A stretch of DNA of 55,430 nt from Alphaproteobacteria bacterium (lineage in GTDB: Bacteria; Pseudomonadota; Alphaproteobacteria; Rs-D84): the NCBI GenBank assembly GCA_009783855.1, contig WRCO01000003.1, positions 1-55,430 on the forward strand, in the 5' to 3' direction. A program made the translations under genes and the position numbers. Of the stretch, positions 3,493 through 54,318 are shown in pieces (the stretch's first letter is position 1; each line of letters starts with the position of its first letter). The notes beneath the pieces are model-generated. The model saw only the letters and a program-made list of their open reading frames with translations. It had not been told where the DNA came from and made no database searches.

Positions 3493-4183
3493 ATTCTATC
3501 CCCACAATATATATTTCTGGATATTTCAATAACTCACTAAATTTCGGACTAGCGATTACATTATCAAATATCTCATTGTAATTTTTGTTATGGACGGAAA
3601 ATGCAATAGTAAATGCCTTTGATTTATCCGGAAATGTTGAAATGTTGCTTTTAGTTTTATCGCCAATCCATTTATCTAAGTCAGGCAGCTCCTTAATATC
3701 TTTTTTGTTCTCAATAAATTTAACGATTTGATTGATAGCTATGGTGTGCGATGACTGATTTTTATTATATTTTGCTTCCCCAAATGCAATAAAGTTGGTT
3801 GGAGTCTCTGTGTGAAAGTCAAATCCAGGATTTCCACGTTTCTTCTCTTTCCATAATTCAGCCAGTGGAATTTTGTTATGACGGTGATGTCCTACAAGCA
3901 AATCTTGCGCCTGTGTTGATACTATTATTTCACCTAAGTCTCCTGAAATTGGATTAACAACATTGGTTAGAATTCCCGATACGATTTTTGCTATCGTCTC
4001 TTTGGCACGAGCTTCATAGCCCAATTTTGCCATAATGTCTAGGCTGTTTATCCAACTAGTATCAGATATGCTTTTTTGTATCTTTGTGGCCAACTTTGCT
4101 ACATCAGAAACTTGGGCATGAATAAAAGAAATCGTGCAATTATCTTGCACTTTTTGTTGTGTCTGATGGATATTTAGGCACAC
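3482..4183 (-). CDS. PD-(D/E)xK nuclease-like protein, HamA (DUF1837)-like
   Basis: GDLGE...GFDF...FGEAKY motif pattern. It overlaps the helicase start, and AGGAG precedes the GTG start. Confidence 0.65.
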   Translation of the reverse strand: MCLNIHQTQQKVQDNCTISFIHAQVSDVAKLATKIQKSISDTSWINSLDIMAKLGYEARAKETIAKIVSGILTNVVNPISGDLGEIIVSTQAQDLLVGHHRHNKIPLAELWKEKKRGNPGFDFHTETPTNFIAFGEAKYNKNQSSHTIAINQIVKFIENKKDIKELPDLDKWIGDKTKSNISTFPDKSKAFTIAFSVHNKNYNEIFDNVIASPKFSELLKYPEIYIVGIEFVN

Positions 4184-4280
4184 AATATATTTCTCCTATT
4201 CAATTGTTTAGCTTCCTTTCCGACTAAATATAGTATTTTAGGGGGTAGTTTCAAGGTATATTACACTTTATTTACTTTCT

Positions 4281-4594
4281 TTTCCCTGATACTCAAAATA
4301 AATTCCCTGTTAATTTTTTAGGGAATTTTCGGGCGAATTGGCGGTATTGTTGGGGTGTGGCGGGGCAATTTTCGAGAAATTGGGCGAAATATGCAAAATT
4401 TCCCTGTATTTTCCCTGATAACGGTGTTATGATGGGGTCACAAGGCTGGGCTTAGTATGGGATACACCGTTGTTCTTTACAGCCCCGCCAAGATTTCAGA
4501 TAGTATATGGCACATGGTAGAAACACCCTAAAAGCCCGCAGTTCTGTAGGATTTTTATTGCATTGACTATGTATACCTTGCTAAAATCCCTGAT
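4281..4594. repeat. Cluster of TTCCCTG(A/T) motifs including an inverted pair
   Basis: Copies near 4282, 4303, 4400, 4411 and 4587 (TCCCTG). Inverted pair AAATTCCCT...AGGGAATTT at 4300-4328. Confidence 0.6.
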
Positions 4595-4657
4595 AGCTGC
4601 AATTTTAATAGGCATTCTATATAATGGCCTAAAACAGAGAGTCAATGGAGTTGTAAA

Positions 4658-5020
4658 ATGAAACTAAGCCCAATTCTTCACGAGGAGGCGTTTGCATTTG
4701 TGGCCGCAGACAGCGACATGGCGGCGCAATTTCTGCCGGATGCAATATGCGTATTCAAAGAGGCCGAAGGTATAACTCTGGTCATATCGGAATCGGTCGC
4801 AAAGAAGCACGGACTGGCATACGAATTCCGCGCTGCCTGGATTACCTTGTCCGCGGAAACTTCCCTGAACGCCCTAGGAATAACAAGCACGTTTTCCAAA
4901 GTCCTTGCCGACAACGGAATCAGCTGTAACGTTTTCGCGCCAATACACCATGACCACATATTCGTGCCATTTGAAAAAGGTGCGGAAGCGGTGCAGTTGC
5001 TGGACGGTATCACATTGTAA
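4658..5020 (+). CDS. ACT domain-containing protein (DUF2241/ACT_7-like)
   Basis: FKEAEGITL, WITL...SLNALGIT, GISCNVFAPIHHDHIFVP. Confidence 0.85.
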   Translation: MKLSPILHEEAFAFVAADSDMAAQFLPDAICVFKEAEGITLVISESVAKKHGLAYEFRAAWITLSAETSLNALGITSTFSKVLADNGISCNVFAPIHHDHIFVPFEKGAEAVQLLDGITL

Positions 5021-5067
5021 TGACATTCTTATAGGCTGCCATATACTTAGATATCCTGTCCCGCCAC

Positions 5068-5140
5068 CCTTCGCCTCTGCGAGGCTACGGGTGAGTAAGC
5101 AAGTAGCAAAGGCCAAGGAGTGTCCTCCGTAGCCTTGGCG
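5068..5140. repeat. Inverted doublet of REP-like CCGTAGCC-N-GGCGAAG element
   Basis: CCTTCGCCTCTGCGAGGCTACGG (minus-strand copy) followed by CCTCCGTAGCCTTGGCG. Same family as 46153-46180 and 52223-52345. Confidence 0.65.
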
Positions 5141-5173
5141 TACATATAATGCCTATAATAACGGGGTCAATAA

Positions 5174-5584
5174 ATGGAAAATCAAACCATAGACAAGCTT
5201 GCTTGGATGCATTTTGAAAATCAGAAACAACTTGTCGTGCGCACAAAAGGTAAAGATAAATTTTACAATCCTGGCGGAAAACGCATTCCGGGCGAAACTG
5301 ATGTCCAGGCTTTGGTGCGCGAAATAAAACAAGAGTTGGATATCGACATTATTCCCGAAACAGCGAAATTATTTGCCACTTATACCGCACAAGCAGACGG
5401 CAAACCAGCAGGCGTTATGGTAAAAATTACGGCATACACCGCAGATTTCACCGGCACGCCAAAACCGTCCAGCGAAATAGAAGAAATCGCATACATTGAT
5501 TCGTCTGATGAATACAGGCTGTCAGCAATTCATATGGTCGGCGGAATATTGAAAGACCTTGTTAAAAAGGGATTAATAAGATAA
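5174..5584 (+). CDS. NUDIX hydrolase
   Basis: Nudix box PGGKRIPGETDVQALVREIKQEL. Confidence 0.9.
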   Translation: MENQTIDKLAWMHFENQKQLVVRTKGKDKFYNPGGKRIPGETDVQALVREIKQELDIDIIPETAKLFATYTAQADGKPAGVMVKITAYTADFTGTPKPSSEIEEIAYIDSSDEYRLSAIHMVGGILKDLVKKGLIR

Positions 5585-5642
5585 CAATTCAGATATGGGA
5601 AAGTAAGCAACAGAATGCCTGCCCGCCATGTTTGAACTTCCC

Positions 5643-5670
5643 TTGACAGGAACCCAAAATGAACTATAAT
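5643..5670 (+). promoter_or_regulatory. Sigma70 promoter TTGACA-16-TATAAT
   Basis: TTGACA 5643-5648, TATAAT 5665-5670, upstream of ATG 5710. Confidence 0.7.
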
Positions 5671-6017: not shown

Positions 6018-6716
6018 TCAAAAAATCTTGGTAAGCATTTTGGAAAGAGTCTTGCCGTCGCTTGCGTCATCGTATGCGATTTTACCCATGGATAAAATTA
6101 TCGCATTGTCGGTAAGCGGCAACAGGGTTTTCAAATTATGTTCCACGATTATAAAACCGGTTCCGGTTTTTTTATTTATTTCGCGAAGTTTGTGAAACGT
6201 GTCGCTTATAAGTTTCGGCGCAAGCCCGATACTGGGTTCGTCCAGCACCAGCAATTTCGGTTGATTGATAAGCCCGCGCGCAAGCGCGACCATCTGTTGC
6301 TGCCCCCCGGAAAGATTTCCCGCCATATCGTCAAGCCGGTTACGCAAAGCCGGAAAGTGTTTAAGAACTTTATCCAGCCGTGCGGAAAATTCCGCGCGGT
6401 TGCCCCAATGGTGCGTCGCGATTTCAATATTGTCGCGCACGGACATGTTTGGGAAGACCCGCTGACCCTGGCCAATCATAAACACGCCGTGTTTTATCCA
6501 GTCCGCGGGGCTTGCGGGAGCGGAAAATTTTCCGCCCACAGATATATCCCCGCTCATCGGCCGCAACAACCCCATCATAGTCTTAAGCAAGGTCGTCTTG
6601 CCGCATCCGTTCGGTCCCATAATCACGGTGATTTTGGACGGGTCGAATGCGACGCTCACGTCGCTTAAGACAACTTTGTCACCGTATCCGGCCGTAATAT
6701 GATTAAGTTTTATCAT
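6018..6716 (-). CDS. livF: Branched-chain amino acid ABC transporter ATP-binding protein (LivF-like)
   Basis: Walker A GPNGCGKTT, signature LSGGQQQM, LDEPSIGLAP. Confidence 0.85.
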   Translation of the reverse strand: MIKLNHITAGYGDKVVLSDVSVAFDPSKITVIMGPNGCGKTTLLKTMMGLLRPMSGDISVGGKFSAPASPADWIKHGVFMIGQGQRVFPNMSVRDNIEIATHHWGNRAEFSARLDKVLKHFPALRNRLDDMAGNLSGGQQQMVALARGLINQPKLLVLDEPSIGLAPKLISDTFHKLREINKKTGTGFIIVEHNLKTLLPLTDNAIILSMGKIAYDDASDGKTLSKMLTKIF

Positions 6717-7807
6717 TTCACTATCACCGTTATTCCGTTTTCTATTTTACGAAGCGTGCCCGGGGAATTTATAACCCCGGACGGCGCCGTCGTGATGGTG
6801 CCGATGGCCGTTTCCATCCCGCCGGTTTTTTCAAGAATCGTCCGCGCGGCGGCGGCGTTATCGGCGGTGTCCGGATTTGCTTCGAACGCTTTGGTCAGAA
6901 TCTGCAATATCGCATAATAATATTCCGCATAGTTCGTCACCCGGGTCCCCGTCAATCGTTCGAACCTTTCTATGAAATCGTCGCTCCACGGGGCGCCGTC
7001 GCCGTAATAGAATCCTTCGGCAAGACTTTTGTCTTCCAAAAACGAAAACGATTCCACGCTTATCACCGGGATTGTCATATTCAATTGATGATACTGGCGC
7101 AAGAATATGGCAATTTCCGGCATAAAGAACTGTGCGAAAATCACATCGGGCGCGTCATTATTGACGCGGTGCAATATGGGGCGGAAATCCCGCTCTCCCC
7201 TGTTTACCGGGTGGACATTCCGGACCGTGATTCCCGTGCCTTCCAATTCGCCGCGCAGCACGTCAAGAAATATCTGTTGCACGGATGTGATTTCATGAAC
7301 GTAATCTATGGTCCGTGCGCCCGTGTTTTGCAGATGGCGGATTACTTCGCGCGCCTTGTCTTCGGCGGATGTTACGATGGTGAAATTATAATCGCCCTGG
7401 GCGACGTTCGGGTCTGTCGCCGTGGATATATGAATCACGCCGGCGCGTTCTGCAATCGGGTTTATCGCGCCGCCGATATGCGATGCAAAGGATACGATGG
7501 CATTGACCCGGTTGGCGGCAATCATTTTTCGCGCGCTGGTCGCGGCGGTTGCGGATTGAAACCGGTTGTCTTCAAAGAATACTTCATATCTGAAATGCGC
7601 CGCGTCCGCGTCGAAATCGTCGAAGAACAGTCGGACCGCATGCTGTGCCGAGCGTCCGAATTTCGCCGCTTCGCCCGACAGGGGCATGGAGAACCCAATC
7701 CGGATAACGGGCCGCGGGTCGGATGACATATATGCCGGCCGCATTGCGAAGAACGCAAAAGCGGCGATAACAACGGCGCCGACGATTATCAAAAGTTTTT
7801 TGCTCAT
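6713..7807 (-). CDS. ABC substrate-binding protein, LivK/type-1 periplasmic fold (paralog 1)
   Basis: N-terminal TM anchor, RIGFSMPLSGEAA..G, FEDNRFQ; located in the liv cluster. Confidence 0.85.
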   Translation of the reverse strand: MSKKLLIIVGAVVIAAFAFFAMRPAYMSSDPRPVIRIGFSMPLSGEAAKFGRSAQHAVRLFFDDFDADAAHFRYEVFFEDNRFQSATAATSARKMIAANRVNAIVSFASHIGGAINPIAERAGVIHISTATDPNVAQGDYNFTIVTSAEDKAREVIRHLQNTGARTIDYVHEITSVQQIFLDVLRGELEGTGITVRNVHPVNRGERDFRPILHRVNNDAPDVIFAQFFMPEIAIFLRQYHQLNMTIPVISVESFSFLEDKSLAEGFYYGDGAPWSDDFIERFERLTGTRVTNYAEYYYAILQILTKAFEANPDTADNAAAARTILEKTGGMETAIGTITTAPSGVINSPGTLRKIENGITVIVK

Positions 7808-7825
7808 ATCATCCTCCTTATCACT

Positions 7826-7843
7826 TGTTTACTATAGTAGATA
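7826..7843. repeat. 18-bp palindrome copy 1 (TGTTTACTATAGTAGATA)
   Basis: Degenerate TGTCYACTATAGTRGACA just upstream of the paralog-1 RBS, followed by a period-7 array at 7852-7886. Confidence 0.8.
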
Positions 7844-7897
7844 TCTTTTTTCAAATCACTAATCACTGGTCACTTGTAACTGATTAATGGTTGAAGG

Positions 7898-8992
7898 TCA
7901 CTCCATTCTTACCGGCACGCCGTTTTCTATTTTTCGCAACACAGTGGGCGCGTCGATAATTCCGCCCGGACATATCGTGACAACGCCGATAACCGTTTCC
8001 AATCCGTCGGTCTTTTCAAGGATAGCCCGCGCCGCGGCGGTATTGTCCGCCGCATCCGGATTTGCTTCGAACGCCGTTGTCAGGATTTGCAGAATCGCGT
8101 GCATATATTCCGCAAAGTTCGTCGCGGTGCTTCCGACAAGCCGTTCGTACCTTTCTGTGAAATCGTCGTTGCCGGATGCCGTGGCGACATAATACAATCC
8201 TTCGGCCAATGTCTTGTCGCCAAGAAACGAAAACGAATCCGCGCTGAAAAGCGGGATTGTTATGCCCGACTGATGATACTGGCGCAGAAATATTGCGATT
8301 TCCGGTTCGGAAAATTGGGGAAGAATCATGTCGGGCGTATCATTCGCGATACGTTGCAGTATCGGGCGGAAATCACGCTCGCCCTTGTTTACCGGATAGA
8401 CGCTTTTAATTTCTATCCCGGTTCCTTTGATTTCGGATTTCAATGCGTTGATGAACACCTGTTGGCCGGATACAATTTCATGGACAAGAGTTATTGTTCC
8501 CACGCCAAGATTTTGCAAATGCCGGATTACCGCCTGCGCTTGTCCGCGGGCCGACGATATGATTATAAAATTATATTCGCCGCGCGCAACGTCCGGGTCT
8601 ATGGATGCCGAAATATGGATGACGCCGGCGCGTTCTGCAATCGGGTTTGTCGGGCCGCCGATATGCGACGCAAGGGATACAATCGCGTTGACCCGGTTGG
8701 CGGCAATCATTTTATGCGCGACGGATGCGGCCACGCCGGATTGAAAACGATTGTCTTCGAATATGATTTCGTATCTGTAATGCGCCGCGTCCGCATCAAA
8801 GTCTTCGAAAAACAACCTTACGCCATGGCGAGCGGCTTTGCCAAAGTGTGCGGAATCGCCGGACATCGGCATGGAGAACCCAATCCGGATAACGGGCCGC
8901 GGATCGGATGACATATATGCCGGTCGGATTGCGAAAAATGCAAAAGCGGAGATAACAGCGATGCCGGCGATTATCAAAAGTTTTTTGCTCAT
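7898..8992 (-). CDS. ABC substrate-binding protein (paralog 2, close to paralog 1)
   Basis: RIGFSMPMSGDSA..G; strong similarity to 6713..7807. Confidence 0.85.
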   Translation of the reverse strand: MSKKLLIIAGIAVISAFAFFAIRPAYMSSDPRPVIRIGFSMPMSGDSAHFGKAARHGVRLFFEDFDADAAHYRYEIIFEDNRFQSGVAASVAHKMIAANRVNAIVSLASHIGGPTNPIAERAGVIHISASIDPDVARGEYNFIIISSARGQAQAVIRHLQNLGVGTITLVHEIVSGQQVFINALKSEIKGTGIEIKSVYPVNKGERDFRPILQRIANDTPDMILPQFSEPEIAIFLRQYHQSGITIPLFSADSFSFLGDKTLAEGLYYVATASGNDDFTERYERLVGSTATNFAEYMHAILQILTTAFEANPDAADNTAAARAILEKTDGLETVIGVVTICPGGIIDAPTVLRKIENGVPVRME

Positions 8993-9010
8993 ACCATCCT
9001 CTTTATCAGT

Positions 9011-9028
9011 TGCCTACCATAGTAGACA
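9011..9028. repeat. 18-bp palindrome copy 2 (TGCCTACCATAGTAGACA)
   Basis: Upstream of paralog 2; period-7 array at 9037-9085. Confidence 0.8.
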
Positions 9029-9075
9029 TCTTTTTTATAATTACTAATCACTGGTAACTGATTAATGATAACCGA

Positions 9076-10206
9076 TTACTGGTCACCAGCCGGCGCAACC
9101 GACCGGCCGTCACGTATTTCGCGGATTACGGTGGGGACAAGGATGTTGCCGTCGTCGTCCGTCCTCAGCGTCGCCAATGATGTCCGAAGTCCTGCGGTGT
9201 TTCTTATCATGGATTCCGCGACCGCTTCGGGTGTCGGCTTTTCGCCGGGTGCGGCGTCCGCCATTTCCCACGCATTGACAAGTATGTTAATCATCATGTA
9301 CGTCGCTTCGGCGTAATAGGTGTCCGTCCGCCCAAGGACGCCTCCAAACCGGTCAAGCCATTCGGGCGTGGCGGTCACATCCCGAACTTCCCACATTCCT
9401 TCGACCAATGATTTATCGGTGACAAGTCCGATGGTCTGTTGTCCGGTCACGGGAATATTCAAATTATTCCGCCGCATGGCTGTGATAAACCTGTCGGAAT
9501 CCGGCGGCATTAATTGCATAACCACCATGCCCGCGCCGGATTGCCTTATCTGTCTTACCATCACGTCGAAATTCTGTTCGCCCGGACGAATGCGGAAGGT
9601 CGGCCCAAGCGTAAGAGTATCGCGTGCGTTCGCCTGTCGCACGATTGTATCGTACAGTATGGTGTTGGCGACGTCGCTTCCTCCGATGACCGCAATTTTA
9701 TTTACGCCCTGGGCCTGCACACGGGAAAGAAGTTTATCAATCGCCGCTTCCATATCAAGGGTCAGGCGAAAGGCAAAATCACCGTCGCTTGTCGCCGGGT
9801 CAAGCGTATAGTTCAGATTGATAATCCGATGCCTGTTGATAATCGGATTGATGGCAAGCGCCATACCCGAAAAAATACTTACAACCGCGTCGGCCCTTTG
9901 ATTTCGCGCAAAGCGGTGCATTATGGTTACTGCCCGCGCGGTCGAAAATTGCACGTCTTCCCAAATTATCTCATACCTGTATTTCGCGTCCGGATTTTGC
10001 GCTTTCCATTCCGGCATGAACGCGTCGATAACCCGGCGGTTGACATCGCCAAACGCCGCCATGTCGCCCGTCATCGGATACAGCATGACAACCCTGACGA
10101 CAGGCCGGCCATCATCGGATTTGTCCGCGCCGCGCGGTACAAGCACAAACGCCGAAACAGCCGCCGCAACCAGCCCAATAATTATCAAAAGTTTTTTCTT
10201 TCTCAT
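9076..10206 (-). CDS. ABC substrate-binding protein (paralog 3, divergent)
   Basis: PMTGDMAAFG, EDVQFS; N-terminal TM anchor. Confidence 0.8.
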   Translation of the reverse strand: MRKKKLLIIIGLVAAAVSAFVLVPRGADKSDDGRPVVRVVMLYPMTGDMAAFGDVNRRVIDAFMPEWKAQNPDAKYRYEIIWEDVQFSTARAVTIMHRFARNQRADAVVSIFSGMALAINPIINRHRIINLNYTLDPATSDGDFAFRLTLDMEAAIDKLLSRVQAQGVNKIAVIGGSDVANTILYDTIVRQANARDTLTLGPTFRIRPGEQNFDVMVRQIRQSGAGMVVMQLMPPDSDRFITAMRRNNLNIPVTGQQTIGLVTDKSLVEGMWEVRDVTATPEWLDRFGGVLGRTDTYYAEATYMMINILVNAWEMADAAPGEKPTPEAVAESMIRNTAGLRTSLATLRTDDDGNILVPTVIREIRDGRSVAPAGDQ

Positions 10207-10231
10207 TATGTTTCCTTTTTCATTTTATCCG

Positions 10232-10256
10232 TTGTCCTTACTACTATAAGGGACAA
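10232..10256. repeat. Palindrome variant copy 3 (TTGTCCTTACTACTATAAGGGACAA)
   Basis: Upstream of paralog 3; GTTGTTA/GCTGTTA array at 10261-10282. Confidence 0.6.
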
Positions 10257-10284
10257 GCCAGTTGTTAGCTGTTAGTTAGCTTAT

Positions 10285-11163
10285 CTAAACTCTGCATTCC
10301 GTCCGCTTCGGCTTCTGCGTAAATATGCCCCGTGGGCGAAGCCACAACAGGATGATAAATATCACAAACGCCACCAAATCGCGCCATTGCGACGCAAACA
10401 TCCAAACGCCGATATTCTCCGCGCCGGCAAGCACCATCGCGCCAAGATAAGCGCCAAGGATGGTCGGGCCGCCGATGATGGCCGCAATCATTCCTTTGAA
10501 TAAGATATTAAAGCCCATAAGCGGCTCCATACCCGTATCGTATCCGACGCACAATCCGTACGCGCCAAGAATTGCGCCGGCAATCACGGACACAATCATC
10601 ACCACGCGCGGGACATTTATGCCGACAAGGTTTGCCAAAGGCGGGCTGTCGTGAATCGCGCGAATGGTCTTGCCGAAAAACGTGCGTTGCAACATGAACG
10701 ACAATCCGCCAAGCACTATGGCGGCGAATCCGACTATGACAACCTGGGTCGTTGGGATTCCGGCGACCCTTGTGAAATCAAGCGCACGGCCAAGCGTTTG
10801 ATATTGCGGCCCGAACGCAAGATGAATCGCGCTTTCGAAAATTGTATAAAGCCCAAGCGATATGATAAGCAAAACCATCGGTGACGCGCCGGACGCGCGC
10901 ACGGGTTTGAAAATAAACGCTTCAAGCGCCCATGTGAATGCCGCGACAAGCACGATTACAATCGGCCATGCCGCCGTCACGCCGAATACCGGTATCAATG
11001 CGAACCCAAGATACGCGCCAAGCGCCACCGACGCGCCAAGGGTAAGGTTGAAAAACGGCGACACCCAATGCATAAGGCGGAACGCCATCGCCATAAGCGC
11101 GTACCCGCTGCCGATGATTAATGTATTAAGAAGCAATTGTTGTAACATTATTTGAATATCCAT
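10285..11163 (-). CDS. livH: Branched-chain amino acid ABC permease (LivH-like)
   Basis: Multi-TM protein with FGKTIRAIHDS...LANLVGINV and AAIIGG. Confidence 0.85.
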   Translation of the reverse strand: MDIQIMLQQLLLNTLIIGSGYALMAMAFRLMHWVSPFFNLTLGASVALGAYLGFALIPVFGVTAAWPIVIVLVAAFTWALEAFIFKPVRASGASPMVLLIISLGLYTIFESAIHLAFGPQYQTLGRALDFTRVAGIPTTQVVIVGFAAIVLGGLSFMLQRTFFGKTIRAIHDSPPLANLVGINVPRVVMIVSVIAGAILGAYGLCVGYDTGMEPLMGFNILFKGMIAAIIGGPTILGAYLGAMVLAGAENIGVWMFASQWRDLVAFVIFIILLWLRPRGIFTQKPKRTECRV

Positions 11164-11174
11164 AGTGGTCGGTG

Positions 11175-12296
11175 TTAGTGATAGGGTGTAGATGCTTTAT
11201 CCTGTTTACCGCCTCCACTACCACCTACCACTTTTCCATTTTCGATTCTGTACATAAGCATTGCCGATTGAAACGCGCCCGCATCCGTTATATCGTAATG
11301 CCCGGCGACGCCGTAATACGCGCGCATCCGTCGCATCTGTGCCGAAATATCTTCGGCGGATGGAATGTCGTCGGAATCAGACGCGGCGCGTTCGACAGCG
11401 GCGGCAAAGACCCGGACGCTGTCATAAAAATACGCCGCGAAGAAAGTCGACGCGCTTCTCATCCGTTCGACGAATTCGGTATTTCCCTGTGAATAGCTTA
11501 AGGTATAAACGCCTTCGAACAAAGAAAAGTCGTCCGTCACATTGGGCAGATTGAAATATACTTTTGTCCCGCCGACCTGTTGCATGTGCAATTCGCGCGC
11601 CAAGATATTAAGTCCCGGCGGCGAGGCGGAAATCACAATCAAATCCGGATTCCATTCCTTCATACGCCGGACAAGCATTGCGAAGTCGCGGTCGCCAAGA
11701 TTGCTGTCGAACCGTCGGACTTCCCCGGGCAGCTTGCCGTCCAGGCCTTCAAGAAGTTCAAGGGTGGTCCCGGAAATCTGAAACGCCAATGCAATCCTTT
11801 CGGGGTTTCTTGAATGTGCGAATTCCGAAAGTCCGCGGGTAATTTCGGCCGGCGTGGGAAAGAATGTAAAATTATAAACACCGTCAAGAACTTCGTGAAC
11901 GGGCGTGCCGTGAAGACCGATAAGCCCGTGCTGGATAATAAGCGGCGCTGTTGCGAACGCGCTTGGCGAAAACGCGGTTACAAGGGCGGAAACCCTGTTC
12001 CGCGCAATCATCTTGTTCGCGATGGAGACCGCTTGCCTTGCCTGATGTTGGTTGTCGTCGAAAATCGCCCGGTATGCGAACCGGTTGTCCGGATTGCCGT
12101 TGATGTCGGATATGGCGAAATTAATGGCGCGCCGGATGGCGTCCCCCATGTGTGCCATATCTCCGGAAAGCGGTAAAATCGCGCCGATTGTGACGACGGG
12201 CCGCGGGTCGGAAAATCGGTGCGCCGGACGAAGCACAAAAAGCGCCGCCACCGCAATTGCAATCACACCGATGATTATTAAAGCTTTTCTTTTCAT
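11175..12296 (-). CDS. ABC substrate-binding protein (paralog 4)
   Basis: TIGAILPLSGDMAHMG, FDDNQHQ. Confidence 0.85.
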   Translation of the reverse strand: MKRKALIIIGVIAIAVAALFVLRPAHRFSDPRPVVTIGAILPLSGDMAHMGDAIRRAINFAISDINGNPDNRFAYRAIFDDNQHQARQAVSIANKMIARNRVSALVTAFSPSAFATAPLIIQHGLIGLHGTPVHEVLDGVYNFTFFPTPAEITRGLSEFAHSRNPERIALAFQISGTTLELLEGLDGKLPGEVRRFDSNLGDRDFAMLVRRMKEWNPDLIVISASPPGLNILARELHMQQVGGTKVYFNLPNVTDDFSLFEGVYTLSYSQGNTEFVERMRSASTFFAAYFYDSVRVFAAAVERAASDSDDIPSAEDISAQMRRMRAYYGVAGHYDITDAGAFQSAMLMYRIENGKVVGGSGGGKQDKASTPYH

Positions 12297-13375
12297 TTTA
12301 TTTCTCCGTCTTTTATGTATCTGATAATGCTTCCTGGGAAAATCGTGCCTTTGTCGTTCATGGAAAGCCGGCCGTTTATGCCGTCGTATTCCGCGATTAT
12401 GCCAAGCAGGCGTTCGCGCAGATTTGTCGTATCCCGGCCGTATTTTTCAAACAGGCGGTGTATAATCATAACGTTGTCAAAGCTTAACGCGGCCGAAGCG
12501 TCCGCCACCCGGCCGCCGAATCGCACGGCGTATTTTTCGGCGAATTCTTCCGTACCGCTTGGAATATCGACAAAGAAATCATCGTTGAAAAGCGTCTTGT
12601 CCGGCGTGAACGCAAACAGATACAAAGTCGTAATTCTTCCCCGGAATCCCTGTTGACGCAATTCCCGCGCAAAAAGCGACAGTATAGGTTCATAAGTGTA
12701 CATCATGACGACGTCGGGATTTGTGGCGACGACGCGCGCGGCTTCCTGTCTGAATTGCCGTTCCGCGGGCGATAATCTTTCCGTTCCGACGATGCGTATG
12801 CCGGCTGTTTCCAATTCGGGCGTAAGGGCTCTCATGACCGCTTCGCCCGCCAAATGTTGAAACGATACAAGGGATATGGTTTCAAACCCCCGCTGTTTCA
12901 AATATCCGGCAAGCTGCCGCGACACCGAATCCAAATCGGAATTATGGTTAAACGTGGATTCGTTGTCGGACACGGCATAATCGGCGGAAAGCGAAATATG
13001 CAGAATCTCGTCGCGGCGAACCCTGTCCCGCAATGCGTGTCCCATTGCCGCGTTGCCGGACAACAGGACGTCTATTCTGTCGACATTTCGCAGCTTTTCA
13101 TAAACGACGATGCCGCGGGCCGCATCGAATCCGTCCTCTATCACGACACGGTATCTGTATCTGTTGTCCGGGTTGGAATTTATTTTTTCAAGCGCCATGA
13201 TAATGCCGGACCTTGCGGATGTTCCGATAACGGCGTTATTGCCGGACAGCGGCAGAATCGCGCCGATTGTGATAACGGGCCGCGCATCCGACGACAGATA
13301 CGCCGGACGCATCGCGACAAACGCCAAAGCGGCGATTGCAATCACGCCAATCATAATTAAAAGTTTTTTTCTCAC
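12293..13375 (-). CDS. ABC substrate-binding protein (paralog 5)
   Basis: TIGAILPLSGNNAVIG; GTG start after AAGGAG. Confidence 0.85.
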   Translation of the reverse strand: MRKKLLIMIGVIAIAALAFVAMRPAYLSSDARPVITIGAILPLSGNNAVIGTSARSGIIMALEKINSNPDNRYRYRVVIEDGFDAARGIVVYEKLRNVDRIDVLLSGNAAMGHALRDRVRRDEILHISLSADYAVSDNESTFNHNSDLDSVSRQLAGYLKQRGFETISLVSFQHLAGEAVMRALTPELETAGIRIVGTERLSPAERQFRQEAARVVATNPDVVMMYTYEPILSLFARELRQQGFRGRITTLYLFAFTPDKTLFNDDFFVDIPSGTEEFAEKYAVRFGGRVADASAALSFDNVMIIHRLFEKYGRDTTNLRERLLGIIAEYDGINGRLSMNDKGTIFPGSIIRYIKDGEIK

Positions 13376-13392
13376 ACCACTCCTTTACTGTT

Positions 13393-13410
13393 TGTCTACT
13401 ATAGTAGACA
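13393..13410. repeat. 18-bp perfect palindrome copy 4 (TGTCTACTATAGTAGACA)
   Basis: Upstream of paralog 5; period-7 array at 13412-13460. Confidence 0.9.
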
Positions 13411-13446
13411 ACTGTTAACTACGGCCCGTTGCCTGCTAACTACTGG

Positions 13447-14535
13447 CTAATAACTGACAAGCACCGGCCTGTTGTTCTCGATTCTATGCAGAACCGCGGA
13501 TGACAAGAACGCGCCGTGGTCTGTTATGTCTATGTGTCCGGCGACGCCTTCGTGCCGGCGAATTCTTTTCATCGCGGCCGAAATATCTTCGGCGGACGGT
13601 ATGGCGTCGGAATCGGACGCCGCCGTTTCGACAGCCTTTGCAAAAACAACTATGCCGTCATAAAAAAGAGGCGAGAAGAAAGTCACGGAACTTCCAATAC
13701 GTTCGATGAATTCGTCGTTTCCCTGGGATACGTCCACGCTGTACGCCCCTTCGAACAAAGAAAAATCGTCCGTCAATCCGACAAGCCCAAAGTGCAGCTG
13801 TGTCGCGCCGACCCGTTGCAAGTGCATTTCGCGGCCGAAAATATTCAACGCCGGCGGATTTATGCCGACGAAAATCAAATCCGGTTGAAATTCATTGATA
13901 CCGCGGACCATCATTGCGAAATCGCGGTCGCCGTCGTTGCTGTCGAATCTTCGGACTTCGCCCGGCAGATTTCCATGCAACCCTTCAAGAAGTTCAATGG
14001 TCGTTCCCGCGGGTTGAATCGACAAGGCAACCCTTTCGAAATTTCTTGATTTCGCGAATTCCGAAATGCTGCGGATAAATTCGGTCGACGCAGGCTGGAG
14101 AGTAAAATTATACACGCCGTCACGCGCGCCTATAACACCCGTGCCGTGAAGACCGATAATCTGGTTCCGGACAAGTACAGGCGCCGTCGCGTAAGCGTTT
14201 GCGGAAAACAGAGTCACCATGGCGGAGACCCTGTGCCTTGAAATCATCTTGTTGGCGATGGGCACCGTAAGTCTGGTCTGCATTTGATTGTCTTCGAAAA
14301 CCGCGTGGTATACGAACCGGTTGTCCGGGTTTTTATTGACGTCTTCGATTGCAAAGTCGATGGCTTTTCGTATCATCTGTCCCATGTGCGCCATATTTCC
14401 GGAAAGCGGAAGAATCACGCCAATCCGCACCACAGGCCGCGGGTCGGACGGCATATAAGCCGGCCGAAGGGCAAACAGCCCCGCCGCAAGAATTGCAGCC
14501 ACCCCAGCAATTATCAAAAGTTTTTTTCTTTTCAT
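13447..14535 (-). CDS. ABC substrate-binding protein (paralog 6, close to paralog 4)
   Basis: RIGVILPLSGNMAHMG, FEDNQMQ. Confidence 0.85.
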   Translation of the reverse strand: MKRKKLLIIAGVAAILAAGLFALRPAYMPSDPRPVVRIGVILPLSGNMAHMGQMIRKAIDFAIEDVNKNPDNRFVYHAVFEDNQMQTRLTVPIANKMISRHRVSAMVTLFSANAYATAPVLVRNQIIGLHGTGVIGARDGVYNFTLQPASTEFIRSISEFAKSRNFERVALSIQPAGTTIELLEGLHGNLPGEVRRFDSNDGDRDFAMMVRGINEFQPDLIFVGINPPALNIFGREMHLQRVGATQLHFGLVGLTDDFSLFEGAYSVDVSQGNDEFIERIGSSVTFFSPLFYDGIVVFAKAVETAASDSDAIPSAEDISAAMKRIRRHEGVAGHIDITDHGAFLSSAVLHRIENNRPVLVSY

Positions 14536-14554
14536 AATATTCCCTTATGTTTGT

Positions 14555-14572
14555 TGTCTACTATAGTAGACA
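14555..14572. repeat. 18-bp perfect palindrome copy 5
   Basis: Upstream of paralog 6; period-7 array at 14581-14625. Confidence 0.9.
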
Positions 14573-14622
14573 TCTTTTTTATAATTGCCAATCACTGGTC
14601 GCTGATTACTGGTAACTGATAA

Positions 14623-15360
14623 CTACACCCCAAGATACGCTTCCTGTACTTGTTTGTTTTTTAATACCGTCGCGGGCTTTCCGGCCGCAAGCAATTGCCC
14701 GTGGTCAAGCACGATGATGTTATCACACAACCGGCGGATAAGTCCGATATTATGTTCGATAATCACAAGTGTTTTGCCCATGCCGCGAAGTTCGGAAAGT
14801 AATTCGACAATCTGTTCTATTACCGCGGGAAATAATCCCGTAAAAGGTTCGTCCAAAAGATAGACATCCGCATCCTGAATCATCGCGCGGCCAAGTTCCA
14901 AAAGCTTGCGCTGACCATACGAAAGCGATTCCGCCAAATCGTCCCGATGTTCGGACAGATGGATTTTTTTCAAAATAACCTCAACACGATGCAGGGGCGT
15001 GCCGCGTGCGCCCATAAATTCGCAAAGACCTGAAACTATTCCCGTATTCGCAATCGCAAGCAAAAGATTGTCGCGAACAGACATTTGATTTACCAATCGC
15101 CCGTCTTGGAAAGTCCGCGCGATTTTAAGCCCGCGCAATGCCGTCGGCTCAATCTGTTCGAATTTTTCGCCGCCGATAATAATTTCTCCGCAATCCGGCA
15201 CAAGCGTTCCGGTAAAAAGGTTCATAAGCGTGGTCTTGCCACTTCCGTTCGGTCCGATAAGTCCCGTGGCGACGCCCACAGGAATTGCAACGGACAGCCC
15301 GTCAACCGCGCGCAGCCCGCCGAAAGTTTTTGTTAAATGTTTTACTTCAATTGCGTTCAT
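14623..15360 (-). CDS. livG: Branched-chain amino acid ABC ATP-binding protein (LivG-like)
   Basis: FGGLRAVDGLS, GPNGSGKTT, ARTFQ, LSYGQRKLLELGRA, VQEAYLG. Confidence 0.88.
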   Translation of the reverse strand: MNAIEVKHLTKTFGGLRAVDGLSVAIPVGVATGLIGPNGSGKTTLMNLFTGTLVPDCGEIIIGGEKFEQIEPTALRGLKIARTFQDGRLVNQMSVRDNLLLAIANTGIVSGLCEFMGARGTPLHRVEVILKKIHLSEHRDDLAESLSYGQRKLLELGRAMIQDADVYLLDEPFTGLFPAVIEQIVELLSELRGMGKTLVIIEHNIGLIRRLCDNIIVLDHGQLLAAGKPATVLKNKQVQEAYLGV

Positions 15361-15373
15361 TTTCCGTTTTTCC

Positions 15374-15423
15374 CGCAGGGGCGCAATATCTTGGGCCCCG
15401 GGTCTTCGATATTCGACCCCTAC
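15374..15423. repeat. GTAG-type REP-like hairpin between livM and livG
   Basis: Minus strand GTAGGGGTCGAATATC...GATATTGCGCCCCTGC; it supplies the livM TAG stop. Confidence 0.65.
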
Positions 15424-16286
15424 ATCCTATATTTGCCCAAAAATCCCTTTGGCTTGAATACCATCATAATTATCAATGTCGCGCCGTAAATCACCTGTTG
15501 CAACTGTGCCGCGATTGTATGGGGCAGGCCAAGAAACCGCAAAACTTCGGGCAAAGAGATAAGGATAATCGCGCCAAGCACCGCTCCACGGCTTGATGAA
15601 AGTCCGCCGATGATAATGATTGTAAAAAGGAATATGCTTTCATGCACTTGGAACGTTGACGGGTCAATAAAGGCAATATAGCTTGCAAACAATCCGCCCG
15701 CAATTCCGGCGATGGCGGCGCCAAGTATAAAGACAAGGCTTTTCATCTTCGCCACCGGGTATCCCAAAACTGCGGCAAGCTGTTCGTCTTCGCGGATGGC
15801 TTTAAGGCCACGGCCGAACGACGACCGGTCGAACCATTCATAAAGCGCGAATACGATTGCAAGAACAACAAGGCACAACATAAAATATTCGGCGTTGCTT
15901 TCGATGACGCTGCCGAATATTTCCGGCTTTGGAATTCCAAAGATGCCAAGCGGCCCGCGGGTCAAATCTTTCCAGTTCATCAAAAGGGAAAAAACTATGA
16001 TTGAAAGCCCGGCGGAAACGATGGCGTAATAATCTCCGCGCCACCTTGCAAGGATTCGTCCGACAACCCCCGCCGCCGCGATGTTTATAATCACGCCAAG
16101 GAACAGCGCCGGAAAAAACCCAAGCCCAAGCGCGGTCATCCCAAGCGCCGTCGCATACGCGCCGATTCCGTAAAACGCCGCCTGGGCAAGCGATAACATC
16201 CCCGCCATTCCGACGACCATATTCAACGACAGCGCAAGCACGCCGTAAATAGAAAACAAAATCCCAAGATTTAACAGATATTCCAT
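15420..16286 (-). CDS. livM: Branched-chain amino acid ABC permease (LivM-like)
   Basis: GMLSLAQAAFYGIGAY, LTRGPLGI, FGRGLKAIREDE. Likely ATG 16286 within ORF 15420..16328. Confidence 0.88.
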   Translation of the reverse strand: MEYLLNLGILFSIYGVLALSLNMVVGMAGMLSLAQAAFYGIGAYATALGMTALGLGFFPALFLGVIINIAAAGVVGRILARWRGDYYAIVSAGLSIIVFSLLMNWKDLTRGPLGIFGIPKPEIFGSVIESNAEYFMLCLVVLAIVFALYEWFDRSSFGRGLKAIREDEQLAAVLGYPVAKMKSLVFILGAAIAGIAGGLFASYIAFIDPSTFQVHESIFLFTIIIIGGLSSSRGAVLGAIILISLPEVLRFLGLPHTIAAQLQQVIYGATLIIMMVFKPKGFLGKYRM

Positions 16287-16326
16287 TGCCCCGCGATTAT
16301 AGGGGCAAAGCCACGGGGAACTCAAC

Positions 16327-16354
16327 AAAAAAACGCCCCGGCGGGGCGTTTTTT
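16327..16354. terminator. Rho-independent terminator
   Basis: A-run, CGCCCC-GGC-GGGGCG hairpin, T-run. Confidence 0.8.
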
Positions 16355-16355
16355 A

Positions 16356-19249: not shown

Positions 19250-19358
19250 CGGAAGAGGGCGCAAGAACAACAATCCCGGCGACTTGGTTTTCGCCGGGAT
19301 TGTTATTGCTATCAAGGTCGTAAAATGATAGAATACATGCAAATTGGGGGGGGACAGG

Positions 19359-20549
19359 ATGAAATTCTTGAAAACAGGTCTGGTCGCCGTGCCCGCACTT
19401 GCGGCAATACCTATGGGCGCAGCGAATGCGGATTGGATGGCTTTGGCAACTCCGGGCCAGATTGCGATATATAATGCTATTAACAGCGCTCCTTCGACGA
19501 ACAGCAATTTTAATACGATTAAAGACCACATAGAATCATTGCTTGTAAGCGTGAATCCGCTTAACAATGCCATCGGGATTGCGGCCTTGTCCGCGTTTGT
19601 GCCGCCGACCGCCCCACAGGTTCATGCGGTATCGACAACCACCGCGGCCCAGGTTTTCGATGCGGCCGGAACGCGTCTTACCGGCGGGGCGATGACGCCT
19701 ATGGGTGAACCCGTGCATAATTTTATTATCGGCAACACCGAAATCTGGGCCCAGGGTTTGGCAAGCCGCGCGCGATTTACGGGCGACGATGCTTTTAATA
19801 CGACTTCGTTCGGCGCGACGTTCGGCGTTGAAACAAATCTTACGCGGTCGTTAAAGTTTGGCGCGGGATACGCTTATACGAACACGACGGTAAAACCGGA
19901 TATAAAGGAAAGCAATATACAATCGCACAGCGTGCTTGGTTACGCGGAATGGAAGGCAGAGGACTGGTTTGTAAACACGGTGGCAAGCTTTACATTCGGA
20001 AGACAGGCCGAAGATAAAAAAATCGCGGGCGTAGGCGTCACCGGTTCCCGTAATCTTGATATGTTTGCGGTTCAATCTTTGGTCGGCCACGAAATTCACG
20101 GCCGCGACCTTACCTTTGTGCCGCGCGCGGGCTTTCGTTATCTTAATGTCTGGCAAGAAGGGTATACGGACAACGCGGGTTCGTACACAACCGGCGCGAA
20201 TGTTGACTTTCTTACCGGAATCGCCGGGATGAAATTCACGTTCGAATGGGAAAGACGGACGCGCAAATACGGCGCGCTGTGGCCGCACGGTCCGCGCATA
20301 AGACCCGAGGCATACATCGGCGCGACGTATGATTTTATAACGGACGCTGTGAATTCCCGGATGATTATGGCGAACGGCGCGGTGATAGACATAGAAGGCG
20401 ATACGCTTTACCGCGTGGCGATAGAGGCGGGCGCCGGGCTTACCATGTCGACCGTCGGCGGCATAGGATTTACCGTCGGATACATGGGCCGCTTCCGCCA
20501 GGATTACACCGATAGCAACGTTATGCTTTCAATCAAATATGCGTTTTGA
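19359..20549 (+). CDS. Autotransporter beta-domain outer-membrane protein with short N-terminal region
   Basis: Signal peptide, 'IWAQGL' barrel start, amphipathic strands, C-terminal KYAF. Confidence 0.8.
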   Translation: MKFLKTGLVAVPALAAIPMGAANADWMALATPGQIAIYNAINSAPSTNSNFNTIKDHIESLLVSVNPLNNAIGIAALSAFVPPTAPQVHAVSTTTAAQVFDAAGTRLTGGAMTPMGEPVHNFIIGNTEIWAQGLASRARFTGDDAFNTTSFGATFGVETNLTRSLKFGAGYAYTNTTVKPDIKESNIQSHSVLGYAEWKAEDWFVNTVASFTFGRQAEDKKIAGVGVTGSRNLDMFAVQSLVGHEIHGRDLTFVPRAGFRYLNVWQEGYTDNAGSYTTGANVDFLTGIAGMKFTFEWERRTRKYGALWPHGPRIRPEAYIGATYDFITDAVNSRMIMANGAVIDIEGDTLYRVAIEAGAGLTMSTVGGIGFTVGYMGRFRQDYTDSNVMLSIKYAF

Positions 20550-20601
20550 TTCATAGGGGGGCGGGGCGGATTTCCACGCGCCCCTAAACCACCGGCACCA
20601 G

Positions 20602-20645
20602 CCACCAAAACAAACCCCGGCGAAAGCCGGGGTTTGTTTTGGTGG
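20602..20645. terminator. Bidirectional terminator, 20-bp stem with GAAA loop
   Basis: CCACCAAAACAAACCCCGGC-GAAA-GCCGGGGTTTGTTTTGGTGG between convergent genes. Confidence 0.85.
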
Positions 20646-20650
20646 TTGTT

Positions 20651-26348: not shown

Positions 26349-26435
26349 TTTCAGTGTGAAGTGTGAAGTTGTGGTTGTCGGCGAAGCCGACGCCACAACT
26401 TCACACTGAAAAAACGCGCCTTTCGGCGCGTTTTT
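26349..26435. terminator. Long heptamer-containing hairpin followed by terminator hairpin
   Basis: TTTCAGTGTGAAGTGTGAAGTTGTGG..GTCGGC-GAA-GCCGAC..CCACAACTTCACACTGAAA, then CGCGCC-TTTC-GGCGCG flanked by A/T runs. Confidence 0.7.
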
Positions 26436-28828: not shown

Positions 28829-28829
28829 T

Positions 28830-30857: not shown

Positions 30858-30943
30858 AAAAAACTCCGTTTTTGGTGTTGGTGGCTTGTGCTGGTGGCTT
30901 GTGGTCAAATACCAACCACCAACACCGGCCGCCAGTCACGATT

Positions 30944-35201: not shown

Positions 35202-35220
35202 CTCGCCCGCATTATAAAGC

Positions 35221-35248
35221 GAAAAGCGAAAAGTGAAAAGCGAAAAGT
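35221..35248. repeat. Heptamer tandem array (GAAAAGC/GAAAAGT)x4
   Basis: Directly visible between divergent genes. Confidence 0.85.
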
Positions 35249-45976: not shown

Positions 45977-48037
<2,061 letters not shown>

Positions 48038-52097: not shown

Positions 52098-52143
52098 AAT
52101 AAAACTTGATTTCGGCAAAAATATATGCCAAAATCAGACCCGT

Positions 52144-54195: not shown

Positions 54196-54223
54196 TGGTG
54201 GCTGGTGGTTGGGGACTCGTAAT

Positions 54224-54294: not shown

Positions 54295-54318
54295 GCCGTA
54301 CCAGCCACGACCCACAAA

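Follow-up and report, generated by a model that had tools for sequence, protein, structure and literature searches.

We analyzed a 55,430-nt stretch of contig WRCO01000003.1 (the window), which comes from an uncultured alphaproteobacterium and carries a Liv-type ATP-binding cassette (ABC) transporter operon on its minus strand (Table 1). According to Pfam, the operon contains six Peripla_BP_6 genes, which we call SBP-a to SBP-f (for substrate-binding protein), interspersed among LivH-, LivG-, LivM-, and LivF-type genes. At its 5' end, a promoter-like sequence (TTGAGT-18-TATAAT at 16325-16296) follows a GC-rich terminator (16329-16355). Five of the SBP genes are preceded by a junction module made of tandem heptamers, a short palindrome, and a leader with a ribosome-binding site (RBS). 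This module is the subject of our analysis.

Junction modules in the Liv operon

Read along the coding strand, the canonical module, which is found at four junctions, begins at the upstream stop codon and continues with four to seven degenerate heptamers (TTATCAG, TTACCAG, TAATCAG, and similar sequences), often a run of A's, and the palindrome TGTCTACTATAGTAGACA. It ends with a leader of 17 to 19 nt that contains AAGG or GGAG and leads to an ATG or GTG start codon. The A-run, AAAAAAGA, is present in three of the four (the modules at 14536, 8993, and 7808), and the palindrome is perfect in two of them and has two mismatches in each of the others. These junctions had been described in an initial annotation of the window, and both the motif matches and our reading of the coding strand confirm them, with one correction: the 3' ends of the upstream genes overlap the arrays by a few bases. 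The variant junction that it reported between LivM and SBP-d is also real, with a variant hairpin that has the same outer stem (TTGTCC..GGACAA) and an AGCTAAC/AACTAAC array, and so is the exception: SBP-c has no module, overlaps the preceding SBP-b gene, and is translationally coupled. Likewise, Pfam identified no integrase, transposase, recombinase domain, or cas gene among the open reading frames (ORFs) of the window, in agreement with the earlier statement that no integrase or cas gene is nearby. The leader of the variant (10207-10231) contains a 5-codon mini-ORF (ATG AAA AAG GAA ACA TAA) whose stop codon overlaps the start of SBP-d (TAATG); this may be a small coupling ORF.

The palindromes are identical at 16 to 18 of 18 positions, while the SBP paralogs are just 24 to 31% identical to each other (except for SBP-a and SBP-c at 63% and SBP-e and SBP-f at 68%). 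Given this difference, and given that one of the modules follows LivG, which is not an SBP gene, passive or neutral duplication of the module along with the gene does not explain its conservation.

We considered two simple roles for the module and rejected both. First, the array might pair with the start of the SBP coding sequence and hide the RBS, but the Liv junctions fold no better than shuffled sequences (z = -0.3 to -2.4 for the minimum free energy [MFE]). Second, the hairpin might be a Rho-independent terminator on the sense strand, but only 1 or 2 of the 8 nt after it are T, and its stem has just three G-C pairs (about -8 kcal/mol). The window also contains ordinary GC-rich bidirectional terminators (at 5989, 16329, 24766, and 41003), so the palindrome is not this genome's standard terminator. 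With Rfam 15 at the gathering score, only three tRNAs were found in the window and nothing matched at the modules.

The palindrome belongs to a lineage-wide repeat

The evidence below largely establishes that an intergenic repeat, made of the palindrome and heptamer arrays, is found across the lineage and that the Liv junction module is its one-armed form inside an operon. Within the window, TGTCTACTATAGTAGACA matches eight times with at most two mismatches, as compared to 0.01 matches expected from dinucleotide-preserving shuffles. Just four of these are at Liv junctions; the others are at 52016, 54231, 54277, and 55371, and the first three of those have period-7 arrays beside them. Including a copy that is cut by the end of the window, there are nine palindromes in 55 kb, or about 1 per 6 kb, all of them outside well-supported genes. 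At 52016, 54231, and 54277, the arrays stand on both sides and are inverted (GGTGGCT... / ...CCACCAG), and region 51940-52100 folds into a single long hairpin (MFE of -96.9 kcal/mol, z = -12). The spacer between lysS and smpB also folds strongly (-53.9 kcal/mol, z = -7.5).

We then scanned genomes, using one genome per species, with the pattern TGTCYAMTATAKTRGACA. At least 108 loci matched, and at least 33 of these are from at least nine metagenome-assembled genomes (MAGs) that are labelled as Alphaproteobacteria or Rickettsiales. Among the matches listed, the MAGs with multiple copies are mostly from termite guts (JAIRZE01, WRHR01, WRCC01, WQXN01, WRJH01, WQVP01, WRIM01, and JAIRLB01); JAFGMU01 is from Zodletone. 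The same 18-mers are kept across MAGs whose G+C content ranges from 31 to 52%. Matches listed from other taxa are single, isolated palindromes without arrays. In the Patescibacteria MAG JAZQJV01 (locus L010, 1547-1604), two identical 18-mers, TGTCTACTATAGTAGACA, lie 40 nt apart without heptamer arrays, in an arrangement like that of twin operators. Viral contigs gave 47 single-copy matches and no phage with many copies, which argues against a link to phage promoters or terminators; we also considered, and dropped, a resemblance of CACTATAG to the core of the T7 or SP6 promoter. A scan of metagenomes with the right arm of the palindrome plus the leader (TRGACAAYYRATAAAAGG, which proved too degenerate) returned 120 loci, of which two had the full palindrome, both on contigs that were already known.

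For the lineage, we examined about 8 kb around each match; our sample has 67 palindrome copies in 320 kb of DNA. The usual architecture is a heptamer array, one to three palindromes, and an inverted array, which together form a long hairpin. The full elements have MFE z scores of -6 to -12 (-6 to -11 at the lineage loci).

The palindrome covaries as a hairpin

The 67 copies give a consensus of 18 to 20 nt, (T)TGTC-Y-A-N-TATA-N'-T-R-GACA(A), which folds into a hairpin (7-bp stem, 4-nt loop). Ten positions are invariant (T1, G2, A6, T10, A11, T13, G15, A16, C17, and A18). The pair 5:14 is C-G in 34 copies, U-A in 26, U-G in 4, and something else in 3, so that pairing is held in 64 of 67; the pair 7:12 is A-U in 32 copies, C-G in 27, U-A in 3, U-G in 1, and something else in 4 (63 of 67 paired). 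None of 500 shuffles reached the observed covariation or percent paired, and when the partner was slid by 1 to 3 columns, just 32 to 40% of positions were paired, as compared to 81%. Y at position 5 and A, C, or T at position 7 can be combined in six ways, and each combination is found in a perfect palindrome, which implies that pairing, or perfect dyad symmetry, was repeatedly restored. Outside the 20-mer, complementarity of the flanks did not exceed the slid controls except at positions 1 and 2; copies that do have extended complementary flanks fold with -18 to -22 kcal/mol.

Could the palindrome instead be a site on double-stranded DNA for a dimeric protein, such as an operator, a roadblock or insulator, or a site for a nucleoid-associated protein? 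A perfect 20-bp dyad with 10 invariant positions is what such a protein might bind, and an identical 18-mer forms the operator-like twin in an unrelated Patescibacteria MAG. However, the variable positions change symmetrically (64/67 and 63/67), which is expected of a hairpin in RNA or single-stranded DNA but not of the independent half-sites of a dimeric DNA-binding protein. Also, the density is about 1 per 6 kb, and the flanks are polar relative to transcription. Thus, we consider a DNA site to be very unlikely.

The commonest subtype of the palindrome, TGTCCAATATATTGGACA (22 copies), has no GTAG; this sequence is confined to the TAC subtype (..TATAGTAGACA). Adjacent palindromes in the window and its nearer relatives differ in subtype, one with a ACTATAGT center and the other with an A(A/T)TATA(T/A)T center: such mixed doublets lie at 54231/54277 in the window, 6972/7013 in L115, 3592/3639 in L116, 310/342 in L063, and 106/138 in L082. 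They recall the Y and Z units that occur in bacterial interspersed mosaic elements (BIMEs); the low-G+C MAG JAFGMU01 has doublets of the same subtype instead.

Heptamer arrays vary in sequence but not in period

Across 30 kb of intergenic DNA, we found 45 arrays with a period of 7, as compared to 6 with a period of 6 and 2 with a period of 8. Autocorrelation peaks at lags of 7 and 14 nt, and only outside ORFs. With a looser threshold, there are 118 arrays with 86 distinct canonical units, and the unit differs at nearly every locus (for example, GGTCAGT/GGTTAGT, AATTAGC, CGCGAAA/CGAGACG, GATTTAT, ATGACTA, CACTAGG, TACCTAT, and ATAGATA at the lineage loci). Because the unit is free and the period is fixed, a structural or replication-based origin of the period is favored over a protein that binds a specific sequence. 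In particular, we rejected a HutP- or TRAP-like protein that would read (YAG-N4)n: YAG shows just a mild enrichment in the array units (57 of 118, as compared to 40 ± 5 in shuffles), and it is absent from many arrays. Stop codons on both strands are mildly enriched (37 versus 23.5 ± 3.7) but not universal, so we also rejected these as the arrays' purpose.

Whether the hairpin apex is the palindrome, a GC-rich terminator, or an entire small gene, arrays flank it, which suggests that they arise at the foot of a hairpin and are kept complementary. They are best explained by replication slippage of 7 nt at the hairpin foot and not by a sequence-specific function. According to a summary of Mrazek et al. 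(2007) in PMC4679880, no long simple repeat is commoner in prokaryotes than the heptanucleotide, for which polymerase slippage was proposed as the cause.

The small gene is a member of PF05635, the family of 23S rRNA intervening-sequence proteins (Avd-like four-helix bundles). It encodes 118 amino acids (28853-29209) and fills the slot that the palindrome holds in other elements. In another MAG (L050, 7400-7930), a homolog that is 58% identical is likewise flanked by heptamers, of other types (AGAGCAT / ATGCTCT). In 23S rRNA intervening sequences, an S23p/IVP ORF lies inside a long stem that is cut by RNase III (for example, in Coxiella; PMC4990558). The genes that we found also lie inside a long inverted-repeat stem, but the stem is between protein-coding genes and not in rRNA, its arms are heptamer arrays, and cleavage by RNase III would be by analogy.

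The palindrome and arrays could be the product of an active, protein-dependent system. A tiny hairpin would be copied into the apices of other hairpins, stalled replication at the foot would add 7-nt units symmetrically to both arms, and the PF05635 protein, with its gene in the apical slot in two genomes, would be a possible partner; the Liv module would then be a portable hairpin plus leader, domesticated in this lineage for the expression of SBP genes. We consider this scenario to be unlikely. If it is correct, it would provide a second, noncyanobacterial setting in which to study, by comparative genomics, the origin of heptamer arrays of the short tandemly repeated repetitive (STRR) type, which to our knowledge has been unexplained since 1990.

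Position and polarity of the repeat

The intergenic regions that contain palindromes include about 15 convergent, about 16 codirectional, and just 2 divergent regions, so the copies sit in transcribed spacers at 3' ends or between cistrons and not in promoter regions. In codirectional spacers, a run of T's follows the palindrome on the antisense strand for 16 of 26 copies and on the sense strand for 5 of 26 (P = 0.004, Fisher's exact test). The mRNA thus has an A-rich tract before the hairpin and no U-tract after it. This polarity implies that the element is shaped by the direction of transcription and that, in operons, it avoids acting as a terminator on the sense strand.

We also considered whether the hairpin terminates antisense transcription: on the opposite strand, TCTTTTTT follows the palindrome, which would block antisense RNA from entering the upstream gene. 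On the plus strand, at least seven of the 8 nt that follow the hairpin are T's in three of the window's four canonical modules. One of these was terminator-like in a scan, and 16 of 26 codirectional copies have the same feature. But the stem is weak (three G-C pairs, about -8 kcal/mol), and the T-run is absent from several relatives (such as L118) and from the copy at 13393. Nor would an antisense terminator explain the conserved leader or the fixed spacing to the SBP start (see below), so we view this role as highly unlikely.

A one-armed module precedes SBP genes in other genomes

We gathered related operons via homologs of the SBPs. In Liv operons from at least four genomes, a one-armed module precedes SBP genes. 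The gene downstream is an SBP for all 11 complete Liv modules (five in the window, three in L116, and one each in L115, L118, and L104), and in the window and the related Liv operons, no module precedes any LivH, LivM, LivG, or LivF gene. Of 10 canonical modules, 9 have 17 to 19 nt between the palindrome and the start codon and one has 22 nt, and the leaders are alike across genomes (GACA-AC-YGATAAAAGG-N6-7-ATG). No other codirectional copy in our sample has this spacing to a start codon. The conservation of the palindrome and leader, together with the kept spacing, argues for purifying selection at the SBP sites.

The related junctions vary in their details. In L115, the LivG stop codon is followed by a (CCAGGAA/CCAGTGA) array, a TAA-type palindrome, a TAC-type palindrome, 19 nt, and ATG. 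L116 has three module junctions, with two, one, and three palindromes, and its gene at 8071 is 79% identical to SBP-f. In L118, a (GTAATAG) array, a palindrome, and 19 nt separate the LivM stop codon from ATG; L104 has the same arrangement, with a fragment of an SBP downstream. Depending on the genome, the orthologous LivG/SBP junction carries one or two palindromes; three are found at another junction, in tandem units of about 41 nt. In one relative, only a single SBP gene was called on the contig, between LivG and LivM, and the module still precedes that gene.

Where an SBP gene lacks a module, it overlaps or directly adjoins the gene before it. This holds for all of the SBP paralogs (at least 12) in L112, which are translationally coupled, with each Shine-Dalgarno sequence inside the preceding gene, and there is no palindrome in 18.8 kb. 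The conserved N termini of the SBPs are also kept in these module-less genes, so this conservation reflects the signal anchor and not gene conversion.

The initial annotation had proposed that the module is a site of cassette insertion or recombination, similar to attC or of a new kind, that built the SBP array. An imperfect-palindrome module does recur at the junctions of a paralog array, and the number of SBP genes does vary among related operons. But the motif is also found outside the array, at the lysS/smpB spacer and by tRNA-Gly, and in multiple copies in at least nine MAGs: it is repeated genome-wide and is not confined to the neighborhood of SBP arrays. The largest paralog operon (L112) has no modules, while the relative with a lone SBP gene has one. 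LivG and LivM, each with a module after it, are core genes instead of cassettes, and no site lies downstream of SBP-b, SBP-c, or SBP-f. We identified neither a GTTRRRY-type core nor, in the window, an integrase or transposase. Finally, the suggested comparison of cassette order between strains found no difference: two other assemblies of the same organism are 99.85 to 99.98% identical to the window, without indels over the aligned stretches, and the gene order is the same in all three. We therefore give the cassette explanation almost no credence, and we caution that, in annotation, junction repeats of this kind should not be taken for integron-like sites.

The spacing also raises the possibility of an internal promoter. 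A -10 box would lie in the palindrome's center (TACTAT / TATAGT / TATATT / TATAAT), and transcripts with leaders of about 20 nt would start separately for each SBP, which would account for the fixed distance to the start codon and for the specificity for SBPs. The center resembles a -10 box on both strands, and TTGGCA-17-TACTAT (14591-14563) scored 9 of 12 in a consensus scan. However, the scan flagged just one of five modules, and the -35 element is not conserved. Most copies lie after the ends of genes, including convergent ones, and 2 of about 33 intergenic regions are divergent. Moreover, a -10 box does not need covarying stem positions. An internal promoter seems quite unlikely.

The main rival is that the element plays no part in expression and is a small repeat, selfish or neutral, like a small dispersed repeat (SDR) or like a repetitive extragenic palindrome (REP) or a REPIN (a REP doublet that forms a hairpin). 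The hairpin would settle at tolerated hairpin apices, the arrays would be by-products of slippage, and the link to SBPs would come from an ancestral copy in a leader that was duplicated. Several observations are consistent with this: palindrome number varies at the orthologous LivG/SBP junction (and reaches three elsewhere), divergent regions are depleted, as they are for REPs, and the L112 operon does without the module. In addition, the copies in WRHR01 share a longer core (..CAT-palindrome-N7-TGTTGCAAMAAA) within arrays of differing units (AATTAGC versus CGCGAAA/CGAGACG). On the other hand, the palindrome and leader are kept at 16 to 18 of 18 positions before paralogs that are just 24 to 31% identical, with a spacing of 17 to 19 nt in at least four genomes, and the 18-mers are conserved over MAGs of very different G+C content. 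Nor did we identify a transposase or a REP-associated tyrosine transposase (RAYT) in the window or the 320 kb around the copies: no scanned ORF in the window matched Y1_Tnp in Pfam, and comparing the Escherichia coli RayT to the 320 kb around the 67 copies with tblastn yielded only noise. We consider a selfish repeat to be possible but doubtful.

A proposed intercistronic hairpin and leader for SBP genes

We propose that the Liv module is an intercistronic RNA hairpin plus leader that uncouples the SBP cistrons from their upstream neighbors and boosts their expression. We give this reading a probability of roughly one-half; we prefer it because it would account jointly for the polarity, the fixed spacing, and the specificity for SBPs. 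The module would be transcribed within the polycistronic mRNA. The array, starting at the upstream stop codon, would form an unstructured A/U-rich spacer, often with stop codons in several frames, and the palindrome would fold locally just 5' of the conserved A-rich leader and shield the RBS from upstream sequence. If an endonuclease cleaved in the A-rich tract, the palindrome would become a protective 5' stem-loop. Each SBP cistron could then be translated, and possibly stabilized, independently of the permease and ATPase cistrons, which would lead to an excess of SBP. The SBP genes that lack a module and overlap the preceding gene would rely on translational coupling instead. Intercistronic hairpins in the Rhodobacter puf operon and the REP between malE and malF are analogies for the role of the hairpin.

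An RNA hairpin that is processed or stabilizes the message, and so tunes subunit stoichiometry, had been the other suggestion in the initial annotation. It fits the placement of the module, which, in at least four genomes, is polar, always stands before an SBP, and leaves 17 to 22 nt up to the start codon. The processing and the effect on stoichiometry are conjectural.

Several points weigh against our proposal. First, the module is dispensable, as L112 carries at least 12 SBP genes without it. Second, the palindrome alone folds weakly (-5 to -9 kcal/mol; about -8 kcal/mol, with three G-C pairs, at the Liv modules). Third, on the sense strand, the imperfect copies have about 6 G-U and 5 A-C mispairs; given this lack of bias towards G-U, pairing in RNA and in DNA cannot be told apart, and selection may be at the level of DNA. 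Fourth, the association with SBPs could be due to descent, if the gene was duplicated along with its 5' leader, and not to function. Finally, gene calls in the related loci are crude (the longest ORF), while those in the window were corrected by hand.

If our proposal is correct, then the one-armed module is a natural, compact intercistronic insulator that replaces translational coupling, and it offers a test case for how ABC operons make more SBP than permease.

Comparison with known repeats

The closest known analogs are the STRR/SDR repeats of cyanobacteria, the TAACTGA repeats, and REP/BIME/REPIN elements. The repeat described here differs from them in its host lineage, in combining a conserved palindrome and highly diverse arrays, in lacking a GTAG head in the commonest subtype and any RAYT that we could find, and in its polar half-element before SBP genes.

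STRR heptamer arrays with embedded SDRs were reportedly described in cyanobacteria by Mazel and colleagues in 1990 and by Elhai and colleagues in 2008. Both systems have diverse tandem heptamers between genes, embedded hairpin repeats of about 20 to 27 nt with compensatory changes, and arrays that can form both arms of long helices; in our lineage, these features correspond to the 45 period-7 arrays, the 86 units, the two covarying pairs, and the palindrome at the apex between inverted arrays. The palindrome is not known to match any SDR. STRR/SDR repeats are from filamentous cyanobacteria, whereas ours are from uncultured Alphaproteobacteria, mostly from termite guts, and the polar half-element that is fixed before SBP genes has no described counterpart that we know of. 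Heptamer arrays that enclose a small hairpin repeat, an architecture reported earlier from filamentous cyanobacteria, are thus now seen in an uncultured alphaproteobacterial lineage as well, with a palindrome that is conserved across very different G+C contents. A looser form of this architecture has been described in Beggiatoaceae (PMC4679880).

TAACTGA repeats are intergenic direct repeats in marine Beggiatoaceae, cyanobacteria, and Bacteroidetes (MacGregor 2015, PMC4679880). They have one dominant unit, run towards the downstream start codon, and overlap or replace the RBS, and a role in translation was proposed (PMC4679880). As in our modules, these heptamer arrays lie near gene boundaries, have stop codons in all frames, and sometimes overlap the upstream stop codon. 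However, our arrays have 86 types of units, TAACTGA is antisense in the Liv modules, and the array is separated from the start codon by a hairpin and a normal Shine-Dalgarno sequence. In contrast, direct repeats of the TAACTGA network end within a few nucleotides of the start codon, and a Shine-Dalgarno sequence is usually missing. The window has five exact copies of TAACTGA, all on the plus strand and within palindrome-linked arrays (7877, 9055, 13451, 14613, and 52039), and the reverse complement of this heptamer does not occur on the plus strand of the window.

REP, BIME, and REPIN elements are known from Enterobacteria and Pseudomonas (Bertels and Rainey 2011, PMC3116915). Like our palindrome (9 copies in 55 kb; 67 in 320 kb), they are short (20 to 40 nt), extragenic, and present in high copy number, often with two or three adjoining, and they lie after the ends of genes or between codirectional genes and are rare in divergent regions. 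Unlike REPs, our palindrome lacks the GTAG head in its commonest subtype, is conserved across distant genomes, has variable heptamer flanks, and stands 5' of SBP genes at a fixed spacing instead of 3'. Newbury and colleagues reportedly found in 1987 that the REP between malE and malF stabilizes the upstream SBP message, which would be a precedent for setting the ratio of SBP to permease within an ABC operon.

Integron attC sites are also imperfect inverted repeats at the gene junctions of an array. But integrons have IntI and attI, one site stands at the 3' end of each of several unrelated promoterless cassettes, and sites are restricted to cassette arrays, whereas here a single gene family lies in a functional operon, the motif is genome-wide and has no R'/R'' core, and no integrase was found in the window.

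Other repeats and features

Table 1. Features of the Liv operon, its junction modules, and other repeat sites in the window
Feature	Position	Strand	Details
Liv-type ABC transporter operon	6018-16328	-	Pfam
LivH	15420-16286/16328	-	First gene of operon
LivG	14623-15360	-	Follows LivH
SBP-a	13447-14535	-	Peripla_BP_6
SBP-b	12293-13375	-	Peripla_BP_6
SBP-c	11175-12296	-	Peripla_BP_6
LivM	10285-11163	-	Between SBP-c and SBP-d
SBP-d	9076-10206	-	Peripla_BP_6
SBP-e	7898-8992	-	Peripla_BP_6
SBP-f	6713-7807	-	Peripla_BP_6
LivF	6018-6716	-	Last gene of operon
Module LivG/SBP-a	14536-14625	-	Motif match and coding-strand reading; leader with RBS 14536-14554 (19 nt); palindrome 14555-14572 (perfect); A-run 14573-14580; array 14581-14625 (TTATCAG TTACCAG TAATCAG CGACCAG TGATTGG), begins at LivG stop TAG
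Module SBP-a/SBP-b	13376-13460	-	Leader 13376-13392 (17 nt, GTG start); palindrome 13393-13410 (perfect); degenerate array 13411-13460, enters 3' end of SBP-a
Variant module LivM/SBP-d	10207-10284	-	Leader of 25 nt; longer hairpin 10232-10256, outer stem TTGTCC..GGACAA; array (AGCTAAC/AACTAAC) 10257-10284
Module SBP-d/SBP-e	8993-9085	-	Leader 8993-9010 (18 nt); palindrome 9011-9028 (2 mismatches); A-run 9029-9036; array 9037-9085, overlaps SBP-d stop codon
Module SBP-e/SBP-f	7808-7897	-	Leader 7808-7825 (18 nt); palindrome 7826-7843 (2 mismatches); A-run 7844-7851; array 7852-7897
Full symmetric element	51944-52098		3' of plus-strand gene ending at 51943, upstream of tRNA-Gly; GGTGGYT-type array, GC hairpin, palindrome 52016-52033 (TGTCCACTATAGTGGACA), inverted CCACCAG-type array
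Full element	54196-54318		Between convergent lysS and smpB; array (TGGTGGC...) from lysS stop codon; palindromes 54231-54248 (CAC type) and 54277-54294 (TAA type); inverted array (CCAGCCA...)
Two palindromes	55371-55430		55371-55388 (2 mismatches); 55413-55430 (TAA type, cut by window end)
Heptamer-array hairpin, no apical palindrome	26353-26410		Followed by classical GC-rich terminator
Array hairpin without palindrome	30870-30925	-	Between Bax1-I-family gene and ferredoxin gene
CCACCAG-type arrays	20585-20650		Flank and lengthen stem of GC-rich terminator
Inverted heptamer arrays around PF05635 gene	28828-29238	-	(AACTAAC)x4 28828-28861; (AGCTGTT)x3 29209-29238

Period-7 arrays are also found in the window at 46449-46485, 38070-38094, and 35215-35248: (CGCCTTG)x5 is within the reading frame of DNA ligase (LigA), (TGCCTTG)x3-4 is at the start of an LptE-like gene, and (AAAGCGA)x4.6 is 43 nt upstream of the start of leuS.

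In L048 (MAG JAIRZE01), palindromes bracket a 1.6-kb unit, and we considered whether this is a mobile element. We rejected this, as the unit encodes a membrane protein and not a transposase, and it is flanked by another repeat. The other repeat is GC-rich and inverted (AAAGCTCGGTGCAAATTCCCCTCC...GGAGGGGAATTTAGACCGAGCTTT), like a miniature inverted-repeat transposable element; it has at least five copies (within 2100-5650), next to the palindromes and around the membrane-protein gene.

One of the other assemblies of this organism (L110, 1-919) matches the window at 99.85% identity up to position 19230, near an autotransporter beta-domain ORF (19344-20549), and then the match ends. The mismatch beyond 19230 may be a strain-level difference or a break in the assembly.

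Finally, the first 5,000 nt of the window have a G+C content of 32 to 42%, as compared to about 52% elsewhere, and contain ORFs that have no match in Pfam along with a gene for a Bro-N domain protein and one that resembles DEAD-box helicase genes. This region may be a prophage remnant or a mobile or defense island.

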